A stretch of DNA of 64,000 nt from Longimicrobiales bacterium (GTDB lineage: Bacteria; Gemmatimonadota; Gemmatimonadetes; Longimicrobiales; Gaopeijiaceae): the NCBI GenBank assembly GCA_965116905.1, contig OZ220732.1:512001-576000 (forward strand), given 5' to 3'. Under the pieces are notes generated by a model that did not search any database, was not told where the DNA came from, and worked only from the letters and a program-made list of their open reading frames with translations. Positions 4,796 through 9,499 of the stretch are shown in pieces. The position numbers and the translations under genes are program-made. Each line of letters starts with the position of its first letter. The stretch's first letter is position 1.

Positions 4796-5998
4796 ATGAG
4801 CGTGAACCGACCACACCTCATCGGCGGAGTAAGCGCCGTCCTTGCCATCGCGCTCGCGTGCGGACAGGAAGCGATCGATGAAGCCACCTCCACCGGCGCC
4901 GGGGCCGGGGCCGAAGCGCCCAGGTTCGAGGTGGATCCGTTCTGGCCGAAGCCGCTGCCGGAGCACTGGCTGCTCGGCTCCACGATCGGTGTGGGCGTGG
5001 ACTCCCGCGACCACGTCTTCATCATTCACCGCCGCGCCTCCATAGACGCGCGCACGGAGCTGGGCGCGGAAGCGGATCCGCCCACCGCCGAATGCTGCCG
5101 CGCGGCGCCCGAGGTCCTCGAATTCGACACGGAAGGGAACCTCGTCAATTCATGGGGAGGCCCCTCAGACGAGTACGTGTGGCCCGAGTCAAACCACGGA
5201 ATCACGGTCGACCACATGGACAACGTGTGGATCGGCGGCAACGGGGCGACCGACTCGCACATCCTCAAGTTCTCGCGCGACGGCCGGTTTCTGGCCTCCT
5301 TCGGGCAACCGGAGCTGGGACAGGAACCCGACAGCCACAGCGAGACGCGCTTTAACCGGGTCGCCGAGGTGGCGTTCGACGCCGAGGCCAACGAAGCCTA
5401 CGTCGCGGACGGCTACGGCGGGCGCCGCGTGGCGGTGCTCGATGCGTCGACAGGCGCGTTCAAGCGCTACTGGGGCGCCTACGGCAACGCGCCCGACGAC
5501 ACGCCCACCCCGCCGTACGATCCCGATGCGCCGCCCCTGCAGCAGTTCCGCACGCCGGTGCACTGCGCCGAGCCTTCGCTGGACGGCCTGGTGTACGTAT
5601 GCGACCGTCCGAACAACCGGATCCAGGTCTTCCGAACGGACGGCACCTTCGTGGACGAGGTGATGATCGCACCTCGCACGCTCGGCGGCGGCTCGACCTG
5701 GGACCTCGCCTTCTCCCGCGATCCCGGGCAGCGCTACATGTATGTCGCCGACGGCAGCAATCACAGGGTCCACGTGATGGACCGCGCGTCACTCCAGGTG
5801 CTGACGACGTTCGGCGACGGAGGCCGGCAGGCGGGCCAGTTCATCGGCGTCCACAGCATCGCCACCGACTCACGCGGCAACGTCTACACGACCGAGACGT
5901 ACGAGGGCAAACGGATACAGAAGTTCGTGTACATGGGCCTGGGTCCGGTGTCGGCGGAACACCAGGGTACACCGTGGCCGAGTGGCGGCGGGGGGTGA
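4796..5998 (+). CDS. NHL-repeat beta-propeller lipoprotein (PAL-like family)
   Basis: SD GAAGGAG, lipobox ALAC, FEVDPFWPKPLP and repeated YVADG/YVCDR/IATDSRGNVY blades. Confidence 0.82.
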   Translation: MSVNRPHLIGGVSAVLAIALACGQEAIDEATSTGAGAGAEAPRFEVDPFWPKPLPEHWLLGSTIGVGVDSRDHVFIIHRRASIDARTELGAEADPPTAECCRAAPEVLEFDTEGNLVNSWGGPSDEYVWPESNHGITVDHMDNVWIGGNGATDSHILKFSRDGRFLASFGQPELGQEPDSHSETRFNRVAEVAFDAEANEAYVADGYGGRRVAVLDASTGAFKRYWGAYGNAPDDTPTPPYDPDAPPLQQFRTPVHCAEPSLDGLVYVCDRPNNRIQVFRTDGTFVDEVMIAPRTLGGGSTWDLAFSRDPGQRYMYVADGSNHRVHVMDRASLQVLTTFGDGGRQAGQFIGVHSIATDSRGNVYTTETYEGKRIQKFVYMGLGPVSAEHQGTPWPSGGGG

Positions 5999-6021
5999 GG
6001 GAGGGCGGATTCGGCGTCGGG

Positions 6022-6092
6022 TTATCGCTGCTGGACGACCCGGATCGGTCCCGGATACTGCCGCATGGAAGGGCGTCATCCGTAGCAACCAC
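6022..6092 (-). pseudogene. 3' relic of a VapC/PIN toxin gene (frameshifted)
   Basis: Reads VVATDDAL/(+2 nt)/MRQYPGPIRVVQQR*, aligning with LWTMDEVVGRYPGPIQVVE* of the VapC at 7782; 27/31 nt identity between 6035-6065 and 7789-7819. Confidence 0.65.
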
Positions 6093-6102
6093 GCACGCAA
6101 AG

Positions 6103-6522
6103 CTACTCTCTCGGCGGAGGGACTGACTGAGCCGCGCTCGCCAGACTTTGGGCGAGGGCGACCTGCTGGTCCCGTTCTCTCGGCCAACCAACCACATTGG
6201 CGTGTCTTGGTGGCGGTTCGTCGAGTTCTGTTCGGAGAGGTCGTGTAGCAGATACTGCACCCACTGTCAGGTCCGCCCGGCCGTGGATGTTCCTGCCACG
6301 AGGAAGCGCGTGCAGACGAGCGTGCTCCCATATGGCTGGTTCGCTCATAGCATCCATATGAAAGACAGAGACCTCAAGCGGACGTCCATGTGCCGATCTG
6401 GGCATGAAGGCGTGGTATTTGAGCCTGAACCCACCGTCGGCCTTCGAAATCCACCTCCGCGTAAACGTGAAGCGCGAGAGTGGTGTCGTGTCCGATAGTC
6501 GGGAGTTGCGCCGGCTACTCAA
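6103..6522 (-). CDS. Small hypothetical protein, putative ADP-ribosyltransferase-fold toxin
   Basis: TTG start overlaps the upstream stop by 8 nt; motif order LSR...AFMP...EVSV...PPPRHANV resembles small ART-like toxins (recognised by eye). Confidence 0.55.
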   Translation of the reverse strand: MSSRRNSRLSDTTPLSRFTFTRRWISKADGGFRLKYHAFMPRSAHGRPLEVSVFHMDAMSEPAIWEHARLHALPRGRNIHGRADLTVGAVSATRPLRTELDEPPPRHANVVGWPRERDQQVALAQSLASAAQSVPPPRE

Positions 6523-7012
6523 CTAGCTCCAGGGCCGTTTCGACCAAGCGTTTGGGCAACCCGTCGGCGAACATCTCAGTACCAATGACCCGGACAGCAT
6601 TCAGCCTAGCGGCATAACGAAGCTCCCCGTTTCGCCCAATGCTGACAGAAAGAACTCGATCCGGTCCCAGCCACCATTCAAGTCCGGCGTCACCGTCCGG
6701 CTCGAACGCGATGTCCGGAACACCCAGTGTACTGGGGAAAGCCGCGAGGACTTGTCTCGCCCACTCCATAGACAATTCGCTAGCCGGCGCCGCACCGTAC
6801 CCGTCCCAGTCGGGCTGGGAACAGTCGTAGAAGGCCTCGTCGAGGGCCTGCTGACGCTGGCGGCGAAGGCGGCTCTGTTCCGTGCGCAAAGCGCTCATCT
6901 CCACTGCCGCGACGCGTTGACGGACCGTGCGGGCTTCGTTCGAGATCCCCCGGTCCGTACTCCACTGAAGAAACCCTGACCGAGGCAGGACTACGCTCGC
7001 TACGCTAGCCAT
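6515..7012 (-). CDS. Hypothetical protein with WDGYGAxP motif (165 aa)
   Basis: ATG at 7012 overlaps the upstream TAA (TAATG); DWDGYGAAP, PDGDAGLEW, LSVSI motifs. Confidence 0.75.
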   Translation of the reverse strand: MASVASVVLPRSGFLQWSTDRGISNEARTVRQRVAAVEMSALRTEQSRLRRQRQQALDEAFYDCSQPDWDGYGAAPASELSMEWARQVLAAFPSTLGVPDIAFEPDGDAGLEWWLGPDRVLSVSIGRNGELRYAARLNAVRVIGTEMFADGLPKRLVETALELVE

Positions 7013-7731
7013 TATTGGAATCTCCTTATCGCCTCCGGCGTAAGACTCTCGAAGAAGATCCGGTTCTTCGCATCCCGAACCCTGGTAAGGTGACGGTGGA
7101 GAGTCGTGGTATCTGTCGGGAATGAATTCCGGACGAAGCAATCGATGTCCAGTACAATAGACGGTTCAGCCGATTCCTCGGTTGCAAGAGACACAATCGC
7201 GGTCACGCCATCCATCGGCGCGAGATGGTAGCGGAAAAGAAAGCTCTCCATCGTACCCGCAGATACACCCAGTGGTACTCGCAAGATCTCCGCGAGTTGC
7301 CCAGACGGTGGGAGATTGACCCGATTGATGAAACGCGTCGCAATCCTCTCCACGCCAAGTGGTCTCGCTTGATCCAAGTAGCGATCCCAAACGACCCAGG
7401 CGTTGGCCAGCATTCGATCCCACGACTCGTACGGGGCCAACCGACTGAAGGTGAATCCGTCGATCCGGACCTGCGCAACATGGAGTCCGTCGACGCTATC
7501 AATCCGATAGCCAAGTAACTGTGGAGCCCTCTGGACTGAAGTAGGCCCCTCGTCACCGAAGTGAATCTGCCCCTGGAATTGGTGAATCGGGCCGACCTTG
7601 GGGTATTGGGCCGCGAGTCCATCGACCAATGAATGCAGGGTCTCTTGAGTCGTATCTGCCGCGAGTCGCACGCGGAAGTCAATCAGAGCCTCACTAATGG
7701 GCGCTTTGGCAAGGTGCGGATAGTCGGGCAT
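7012..7731 (-). CDS. TIGR04255-like protein
   Basis: APISEALIDFR, PYESW, RIATRFINR, LDID and KNRIFFESLT pattern. Confidence 0.8.
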   Translation of the reverse strand: MPDYPHLAKAPISEALIDFRVRLAADTTQETLHSLVDGLAAQYPKVGPIHQFQGQIHFGDEGPTSVQRAPQLLGYRIDSVDGLHVAQVRIDGFTFSRLAPYESWDRMLANAWVVWDRYLDQARPLGVERIATRFINRVNLPPSGQLAEILRVPLGVSAGTMESFLFRYHLAPMDGVTAIVSLATEESAEPSIVLDIDCFVRNSFPTDTTTLHRHLTRVRDAKNRIFFESLTPEAIRRFQ

Positions 7732-7781: not shown

Positions 7782-8171
7782 TCATTCTACCACCTGGATC
7801 GGTCCCGGATACCGCCCCACAACTTCATCCATGGTCCACAGCGTGATCCCCTCCACTTGCGCCTGCGCGACGAGCATTCGGTCGAACCGGTCCCGGTGGA
7901 TCTCGGGGAGCAAGTCCACGGCAGCCACGTGAGCCCCGGTTACCGGCAACTCGGAGTAGCCGTTATCGAGCAGCCCGCGGCGGAGCAGCCGGGGGTCCGC
8001 CGTGAAATCGGTGCGCCCAAGCCCGCTCTTGATGGCAACCTCCCAGAGGGACGCAGCGCTGTACACCGGTTCTGACGCAGAATCGTCCAGGAACTCGCGC
8101 ACCGCGGGCGGCAACCGGTCGGGGAGCCCCGCAGCCCACAGCAGAAGGTGCGTGTCGAGGAGAACAGTCAC
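7782..8171 (-). CDS. vapC: VapC family PIN-domain toxin
   Basis: LLDTHLLLW, SAASLWEVAIKSGLGR, HRDRFDRMLVAQA; GTGA overlap with the antitoxin. Confidence 0.92.
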   Translation of the reverse strand: MTVLLDTHLLLWAAGLPDRLPPAVREFLDDSASEPVYSAASLWEVAIKSGLGRTDFTADPRLLRRGLLDNGYSELPVTGAHVAAVDLLPEIHRDRFDRMLVAQAQVEGITLWTMDEVVGRYPGPIQVVE

Positions 8172-8413
8172 TCTCCGTCCTTGAAAGTCGCCAGGATTTC
8201 CTGGGCTCCCATCGTGCCAAAGTCGTCGGGCACCGAGATCCGGCCTCGCATGAATCCCGTGCGCCGGACCGCCTCCGGCTCGGGAGCCTCGACCGACACC
8301 ACCTTCACCAGTGGCTTTCCCGATCGCGCGATGATGAAGGGATCACCGGCCACGGCCTCGCGGATCAGCCTGGAGAGGTGGGTCTTGGCTTCATGCATGT
8401 TGTAGGTGCGCAT
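8168..8413 (-). CDS. Phd/YefM family antitoxin
   Basis: NMHEAKTHLSRL...IIARSGKPLVKV...ISVPDDF. Confidence 0.92.
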   Translation of the reverse strand: MRTYNMHEAKTHLSRLIREAVAGDPFIIARSGKPLVKVVSVEAPEPEAVRRTGFMRGRISVPDDFGTMGAQEILATFKDGE

Positions 8414-8434
8414 AGACGGCCCCACGTCAGGATT

Positions 8435-8452
8435 AGTTTAGTTCAATAAACT
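8435..8452. promoter_or_regulatory. Putative antitoxin operator (AGTTTA-N6-TAAACT)
   Basis: 6-bp inverted repeat in the AT-rich gap upstream of the Phd gene. Confidence 0.45.
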
Positions 8453-8859
8453 TAGTCCACATTTCGCGCCTGCGCCACCCGAGGCGATCCGCCGACAGCC
8501 GCGAGGTGGTCGAAGTCCGAATCGGCCGACTCCAGATCCGCACCGTGGTGGAGGGCGCAGGCGGCGACCAGGACATCGGTTGCCGGGGCGGTCACTCCCC
8601 GCGCGCGTGCCTGGGTCGTCAGCTCGTACGCCTTGCTCCAGACCTCACTGTCGATCGCCAGCTCGGGGAGGACGCGAGCGAACTCCCGCAGCACACTTCG
8701 TTCGTGCGCTCCCCGGGCGCCGTTCCAGAGTTCGAGCTGGACCAGCGGGCACCAGCAGGCTTCGCCGCTTTCGAGCGCGGCCTCAACGCGCGCATGAACT
8801 CCGGGATCGCCATCTGGCCGAAGGAAGTGGATCCAGGACGAAGTATCGACGAGAAGCAA
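8452..8859 (-). CDS. vapC: VapC family PIN-domain toxin
   Basis: LVDTSSWI, VQLELWNGAR, TDVLVAACA, SADSDFDHL. Confidence 0.92.
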   Translation of the reverse strand: MLLVDTSSWIHFLRPDGDPGVHARVEAALESGEACWCPLVQLELWNGARGAHERSVLREFARVLPELAIDSEVWSKAYELTTQARARGVTAPATDVLVAACALHHGADLESADSDFDHLAAVGGSPRVAQARNVD

Positions 8860-8863
8860 TGCC

Positions 8864-9067
8864 TCAGCTCCGCCGCCGGGCGGCTCGGATCTCTTCCGCC
8901 GTGGCCAGGTCGGAGCACGTCCCGCCGAACCTGGTCAGTTCCGCCATCCGCATGCGCCGGTTGAAGTACACGATGGCTCCCACGATGGCTTCGCGCTTGG
9001 TCTTCGCGTTTGTGAAGCGGATCGCATCCGCCAGTTCCTGATCTGGAATATCAACAGTGGTTTTCAT
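8864..9067 (-). CDS. vapB: VapB family (ribbon-helix-helix) antitoxin
   Basis: MKTTVDIPD...AKTKREAI; ends 4 nt before the PIN gene. Confidence 0.88.
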   Translation of the reverse strand: MKTTVDIPDQELADAIRFTNAKTKREAIVGAIVYFNRRMRMAELTRFGGTCSDLATAEEIRAARRRS

Positions 9068-9076
9068 TATTCCACG

Positions 9077-9087
9077 ATAGTAACTAT
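9077..9087. promoter_or_regulatory. Putative vapBC operator / -10 region
   Basis: Palindrome ATAGT-A-ACTAT containing a minus-strand TACTAT 9 nt before the ATG. Confidence 0.45.
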
Positions 9088-9211
9088 TAGAATATCAATC
9101 AATCGCGCGGATAATCCAATGAGTCTGTTGGCTTGCATCCTTCTCTTGGTGTCAGGCAGGTCCTCAATACCTCTCCTGGGCACCCTGTCTTTGAGCCCCA
9201 GGAGGTCGATG

Positions 9212-9499
9212 TCACGCCGCCACGAAGCGCTCAACCGCGATTTCCCCGGCGCTCTCGCGGGCCTGCCACAGATCGTATGCCATCTGCATTCCCAGCCAGG
9301 TCTCCGGCGTCGATCCGAACGCCTTCGACAACCGGATGGCCATCTCGACCGAGATCCCCGTGTGACCGTTTAACAATTCGGACAACGCCTGCCGGGTGAC
9401 ACCCAACCCCTCGGCCGCCCGAGTCACGGTCAACCCCAGCGGTTCGAGGCACTGCCGCCTCACGATGCCCCCGGGATGCGGCGGGTCGTGCATGGCCAT
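9212..9499 (-). CDS. higA: HigA family addiction-module antitoxin
   Basis: PPHPG...LGVTRQALSELLNG...SVEMAIRLSKAFGSTPETWLGMQMAYDLWQ; SD GAGGAGG. Confidence 0.95.
   Translation of the reverse strand: MAMHDPPHPGGIVRRQCLEPLGLTVTRAAEGLGVTRQALSELLNGHTGISVEMAIRLSKAFGSTPETWLGMQMAYDLWQARESAGEIAVERFVAA

Follow-up and report, generated by a model that had tools for sequence, protein, structure and literature searches.

Three genes on the minus strand of the window (the whole 64,000-nucleotide stretch analysed), at positions 6103-7731, form a conserved and mobile cassette that may be a three-part anti-phage toxin-antitoxin system, with gene 3 as an NAD-using toxin, gene 2 as its antitoxin and gene 1 as the holder of the antitoxin arm; we put the chances for and against this full reading at about equal. 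Its parts differ in strength: genes 2 and 3 are very probably an antitoxin and a toxin, a role of the trio in phage defence is likely, and that gene 1 acts as an arm-binding switch is a claim on which we are evenly divided. In the mechanism that we propose, gene 3 would be an ADP-ribosyltransferase toxin that uses NAD, as its predicted fold suggests, and would be blocked by the WDGYG domain of gene 2, while gene 1 would hold the N-terminal arm of gene 2 in the way that SecB-like chaperones do in TAC systems, the arm making the antitoxin dependent on gene 1. A phage product would displace the arm from gene 1, and the toxin so released would halt the infected cell. All of the steps that go beyond the genomic evidence are ones that we infer.

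Gene 1 (7012-7731, minus strand) encodes a protein of 239 amino acids, gene 2 (6515-7012, minus strand) one of 165 amino acids counted from the ATG at 7012, and gene 3 (6103-6522, minus strand) one of 139 amino acids from a TTG start; close homologues have the identical start point and length. The preliminary description had called these three minus-strand genes translationally coupled, and both overlaps are present in the sequence, TAATG at 7012 between genes 1 and 2 and 8 nt (6515-6522) between genes 2 and 3. Its spot GC counts were reproduced exactly on recounting (33/60 at 7021-7080, 33/60 at 7501-7560 and 44/60 at 541-600); over whole genes the GC content is 56, 62 and 61% for genes 1, 2 and 3 against 67.7% for the genome, and the trio has a GC3 of 0.61-0.68 against 0.92 in the single control gene used for comparison. 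Its placement of the operon in a stack of toxin-antitoxin modules also holds, with phd-vapC, vapB-vapC and higA (7782-9496, minus strand) lying upstream, outside the trio, as the insertion site. The higA antitoxin at window 9212-9496 falls in a low-GC patch. Gene 1 belongs to the TIGR04255 family, as had been suspected, scoring 109.6 bits against an NCBIfam cut-off of 30 over positions 2-251 of 252; it matches no Pfam family, and for genes 2 and 3 neither Pfam nor NCBIfam gave a significant match. Each of the three genes is present once in this genome. Searches at the trio found neither a sigma-70 promoter nor a minus-strand terminator, and the sole RNA run (run X1, share 0.06) gives zero cover on the trio, which is uninformative either way.

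The genes are real and evolve under purifying selection. Comparison with five close relatives gave dN/dS values of 0.08-0.15 for all three, two of the gene-2 values being saturated. Presence was scored at domain E<0.01 by profiles iterated on the collected loci. By this measure 46 of 61 gene-2-anchored loci from a species-genome collection have the complete trio, 16 of the 61 being close kin of this genome; according to the preliminary description, a lack of conserved co-occurrence would have told against it. The trio is complete also at 7/10 gene-3-anchored loci and at 6/34 viral loci. The gene order is kept across many phyla, record titles including Gemmatimonadota, Planctomycetota, Verrucomicrobia, Gammaproteobacteria, Desulfobacteraceae, Nitrospiraceae, Bacteroidetes, Pyrinomonadaceae and Spirochaetes. 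Pairwise distances of genes 1, 2 and 3 are correlated among 71 distinct trios (Mantel r 0.64-0.75), for which shared descent alone would suffice.

The trio is also a mobile cassette that was inserted as a unit. It occupies a 1.75-kb insert between two copies of a 31-nt direct repeat that are 87% identical and mark the boundaries of the cassette: the upstream copy (7789-7819) is the 3' end of an intact vapC, and the downstream copy (6035-6065) is what remains of a vapC 3' end and translates as the VapC C-terminus in one frame. An empty site is seen in one contig of run X1, from a related strain, which lacks the trio and runs from the left flank straight into 7789; it is ∼94% like the window over vapC and makes the junction via 38 letters resembling 5995-6034. 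The empty-site reading rests on this one related-strain contig, yet it agrees exactly with the repeat. In run X3 a single contig covers 6019-7854 with zero differences.

Gene 3 is predicted to carry an ADP-ribosyltransferase (ART) fold. Its AF2 model (pLDDT 94.3) gave no Foldseek match at E≤0.001; in a wide fold search (VIA), Tse2 (Z 6.8), KptA (Z 6.8) and AvrPphF (Z 6.1) lead the matches, and every chain in the first 38 rows has an ART fold or belongs to an NAD-using toxin. The superposition on Tse2 (PDB 5ako) has Z 6.8 and an rmsd of 3.3 over 106 aligned residues with 18% identity, which is a middling score, and the fold call thus rests on the uniformity of the list and not on the scores themselves. 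The family comprises 2567 clusters at 50% identity, and in 136 aligned members R17 (99%), S52 and H107 (both 100%) are near-invariant, with P41 also kept. Both the ART fold and the R...S...H arrangement proposed in the preliminary description are upheld by these results. There is no conserved Tyr or late Glu in the same alignment, and since no conserved catalytic Glu is seen the target of the toxin is most likely nucleic acid, with NAD hydrolysis as the alternative. An ESM Atlas search with gene 3 returned unnamed clusters only, plus a weak DUF6098 lead, and PDB sequence searches with profiles of all three genes gave nothing credible. The gene-3 domain is found embedded in longer open frames, possibly fusions, at locus L157 (a 642-aa frame) and in protein P0111 (403 aa), and four loci (L014, L174, L068 and L029) have genes 1 and 2 whole and gene 3 split, short or missing.

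Tse2 is the top fold match of gene 3, and nine Tse2-family genes, drawn from 11 matches, have invariant R, S and H residues that come in the same order along the sequence as in gene 3. Robb 2016 reportedly proposed R-S-H as the Tse2 triad; in the literature searched we found nothing relevant on this triad and nothing tying Tse2-like proteins to anti-phage action. At the sequence level, in contrast, the two are unmatched, in that no Pfam family, and so not PF18648 of Tse2, was hit by any of the 136 gene-3 family members, and hhalign of gene 3 against a Tse2-family profile gave a probability of 1.6%, which is not significant. They differ also in setting, Tse2 being described in the available text of PMC6099711 as a secreted type VI effector paired with Tsi2, whereas gene 3 is an operon-bound member of a cytoplasmic cassette.

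In gene 2 a variable N-terminal arm (approximately residues 1-52; alignment conservation 0.29) precedes the WDGYG domain (0.51). The antitoxin role first assigned to it is supported by the polarity of gene loss. Whole gene 2 accompanies 75 of 76 distinct whole gene-3 copies, upstream of them, the exception having a diverged gene 2, whereas 14 of 76 whole gene-2 copies in genomes are without an intact gene 3, a polarity that is favoured by the sampling, as the loci were mostly found via genes 1 or 2. Gene 2 thus often outlasts gene 3, the behaviour expected of an antitoxin. Where gene 1 is present, 82/87 gene-2 copies have an arm of at least 50 aa; where it is absent, 21/31 have a shorter one. 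Arm-less copies mostly lack gene 3 as well, and at three loci (L051, L077 and L151) gene 1 is undetected while gene 3 and a long arm are both kept; the arm may therefore serve the toxin.

Genes 2 and 3 have a distant counterpart among the PADLOC candidates. The C-terminal part of PDC-M32A is weakly matched by 36 of 46 gene-2 relatives (best E 1.9e-6), gene 2 covering model positions 272-328 only of a protein of about 375 aa, and PDC-M32B is matched by 8/136 gene-3 relatives (best E 1.8e-4). Gene 1 does not match PDC-M32A. The PADLOC check envisaged in the preliminary description left gene 3 itself without a hit, and the distant relationship of genes 2 and 3 to PDC-M32 had been missed there. 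By hhalign, gene 3 aligns with a true PDC-M32B member with E 0.009 over 106 columns and a probability of 4%. Locus L128 carries a true PDC-M32 (E 2e-49 and 1.9e-31): an unrelated domain is fused ahead of the gene-2-like domain, an R-S-H protein follows, and gene 1 is absent. We take the PDC-M32A C-terminal domain and PDC-M32B, with its R, S and H, as distant relatives of genes 2 and 3; the matches are weak, and PDC-M32 differs in having two genes, with an unrelated fused domain of 250 aa where the trio has gene 1 and the arm. From these matches and this layout, the gene-2/gene-3 core has a listed distant cousin with another input module. The PDC-M32A N-terminal domain occurs also without a gene-2-like domain, followed by a PIN-like gene (L129:1387-2816), an arrangement in which it looks like a swappable input module. 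The available text of 10.1101/2024.01.29.577857 presents PDCs as candidates, still untested, that lie within BREX, DISARM or type I RM systems, and PDC-M32 is unnamed in the main text; the part of PMC12429752 available to us merely lists PDC-M32, in a prophage.

Gene 1 is the constant member of a wider set of cassettes, heading at least eight kinds with swapped toxin-like third genes, which agrees with its original designation as the third component. Among 80 TIGR04255-anchored loci, 71 could be typed, the other 9 being broken, truncated or unassigned and dropped. Genes 2 and 3 were recognised by profile at 25 of them and, in diverged form and partly by eye, at another 15. Two QxCD groups account for 13 and 9, and the remainder are 3 that are papain-like by eye, 2 with DUF7689, 2 with PemK, 1 HEPN-like and 1 with DUF3800. 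A quick tree of gene 1 requires the cassette type to change 17 times, where the minimum is 8 and shuffling gives a mean of 40.7, and well-supported clades hold mixed types, the deep branches being weak. Judged by eye, the second genes commonly begin with a long low-complexity arm. A role for TIGR04255 at the head of toxin-like cassettes is absent from the literature searched; the family is mentioned neither in the openly accessible part of that literature nor in one supplement of PMC13069673, and bioRxiv supplements (PDC tables) may list the trio.

Several of the other third genes are unnamed. The two QxCD groups (one at L005, L007, L163, L167, L172, L175, L177, L178, L206 and L207, the other at L001, L002, L009-L011, L017, L166, L176 and L180) have a Q-G-D...S-x-x-C-D pattern and no Pfam or PADLOC family; one follows a short peptide and one an HTH protein, and several second-gene arms there carry a hydrophobic signal-like stretch. 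Their comparison with PemK by hhalign was negative, and a MazF-like nature is only a tentative suggestion. The papain-like reading of the unnamed third genes at L159, L160 and L162 rests on H and C motifs, the DUF7689 genes lie at L021 and L191, and in two plasmid records TIGR04255 stands ahead of a hypothetical gene plus a zeta-family gene or ahead of two further hypotheticals (L127:158-2105 and L126:4001-5831).

Gene 1, for which we propose a chaperone or sensor role, has a predicted fold (AF2 pLDDT 94.8) that is a guanidino-kinase/TBP-like saddle, an alpha/beta sheet. As in ATP:guanido phosphotransferases and TBP, the sheet is curved and antiparallel and has helices packed behind it, and the similarity spans the entire protein. 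The best matches, with Z 8.1-9.3 and an rmsd of about 4 over 175-190 aligned residues, are to the ATP:guanido phosphotransferase domain of taurocyamine and arginine kinases and McsB, at 4-11% identity, followed by TBP (Z about 7) and RepDE (Z 6.6-7.3). That the top folds are enzymes and DNA-binding saddles counts against our reading of gene 1 as a switch. The conserved residues are E14, R129, R133, N/D136, D195 and D197, and the charged ones lie on strands, which suits a binding groove and a ligand site equally. An ESM Atlas search gave nothing above 0.77 among named clusters.

The defence context inferred at the outset is supported by the neighbours of the trio. At 28 trio loci outside close kin there were 155 neighbouring ORFs, at most three on each side, of which 150 entered the scan and five distant ones were dropped; the controls were 106 ORFs in 20 stretches from other genomes, and we used PADLOC at E≤1e-15 and rough-rule ORF calls. 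Restriction genes lie within three ORFs at 11/28 trio loci and at 0/20 controls (p 0.0012), hsdS and hsdR flanking the trio at L094. Any defence or candidate gene was found at 16/28 and 1/20, housekeeping homologues being excluded by judgement, and raw PADLOC matches number 37/150 and 10/106 ORFs; at 12 of the 28 trio loci defence neighbours are absent. A Sir2-HerA defence pair (L277:294-3351) lies in one of the control stretches, whose genome belongs to the same genus.

This enrichment bears on the strongest competing explanation, which we nevertheless consider unlikely, that genes 2 and 3 form an ordinary toxin-antitoxin pair serving addiction or stress, with gene 1 as a TBP- or Rep-like nucleic acid-binding saddle that regulates the cassette or helps to move it, and that no phage is sensed. 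Against our reading, the neighbours of the trio in this genome are ordinary toxin-antitoxin modules, which fits addiction too, and the bounding repeat and the empty site are in keeping with this alternative. The TBP and RepDE matches would fit such a saddle, and a separate regulator would be useful since gene 2 has no HTH. However, in at least 10 gene-1 cassettes the second gene already carries an HTH, the restriction-island enrichment also speaks against this alternative, and plasmid records are few, two matching gene 1 and none matching gene 3.

Somewhat less probable still is an enzymatic switch, in which gene 1, with a guanidino-kinase/glutamine-synthetase fold, would control the pair through modification of either the antitoxin or the toxin, or through nucleotide turnover. 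The best whole-domain matches are of this kind, the conserved polar residues E14, R133, D195 and D197 would be compatible with it, and a G-L-R-x6-L-P register is common to gene 1 and one McsB sequence. Despite the similarity of fold, the catalytic motifs that distinguish these enzymes, NEEDH and the first-strand arginines that bind ATP, are absent from gene 1 and from the family consensus, the rmsd is high and the identity low, and hhalign against 28 McsB sequences gave no profile signal, the score falling within shuffles.

We regard as improbable a third alternative, that of a true TAC in reversed order with a fused and distantly related double SecB as gene 1. In the model, the C-terminal half of gene 1 has four strands and then helices, a pattern reminiscent of SecB. 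The cassette architecture also mirrors the modularity of TAC systems as described in the available text of PMC11618068 and 10.1101/2024.02.24.581848. On the other side, gene 1 has no hit to PF02556 (SecB), and its halves did not align by hhalign with 39 SecB or SecB-like sequences (10.4, inside the shuffled range of 7.5-15.8) or with each other. SecB is absent from the best 50 rows of three fold searches with the whole chain, an absence that excludes nothing.

With CmdTAC and its relatives the trio shares three components, an ART-fold toxin (here predicted), an antitoxin with a variable extension and a third protein common to different toxin-antitoxin units. The kinship with CmdTAC that the preliminary description had suggested is not sustained: the trio departs from TAC systems on three tested features, SecB sequence homology, the H-Y-[EDQ] triad and a C-terminal tail with degron. 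Gene 3 is not CmdT, because it has R-S-H where CmdT has H-Y-[EDQ] (available text of PMC11618068). The extension of gene 2 is N-terminal with no C-terminal Ala-Ala, unlike the C-terminal chaperone-addiction tail of TAC with its ClpXP degron; gene 1 lacks a sequence link to SecB; and the order of the trio is partner, antitoxin, toxin. The best reading is that the trio works like a TAC without being one, by analogy with systems in which a phage protein competes for the SecB-like chaperone and frees the toxin (available text of PMC11618068 and 10.1101/2024.02.24.581848). A last reading, that the three are chance neighbours or spurious ORFs in a region rich in toxin-antitoxin genes, could draw on the lack of a Pfam family for any gene and on the TTG start of gene 3, but it has almost no probability left and is refuted by the order conserved across phyla and purifying selection, with the confident models and the insertion as one unit also against it.

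Should gene 1 prove to be a switch, chaperone addiction would have had a second origin, built on another fold, and gene 1 would be a marker for new toxins, several of the third genes being without a Pfam family. In any event the orphan TIGR04255 family, found in 24/201, 29/301 and 18/201 genomes of three phyla, gains a testable job, and the R-S-H toxin family, with more than 2500 clusters and an unusual site, could open up the chemistry of Tse2-like toxins. More tentatively, and on balance rather doubtfully, TIGR04255 may constitute a second, SecB-independent chaperone-addiction defence platform, carried by roughly one genome in ten in the three phyla, that grips the N-terminal arms of unrelated antitoxins, senses phage proteins and works with interchangeable toxins, chiefly a large undescribed family of R-S-H ADP-ribosyltransferases, and that phages counter with arm-less copies of the antitoxin. 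The arm-less gene-2 copies of viruses are possible phage antitoxin mimics.

On viral contigs, genes 1 and 3 both went undetected at 27 of 34 loci that carry a gene-2 homologue (L031-L050, L052, L054 and L058-L064). The arm is shorter than 30 aa in 13 of 18 distinct viral gene-2 copies without gene 1, and the four viral gene-2 neighbourhoods inspected resemble ordinary phage genes.
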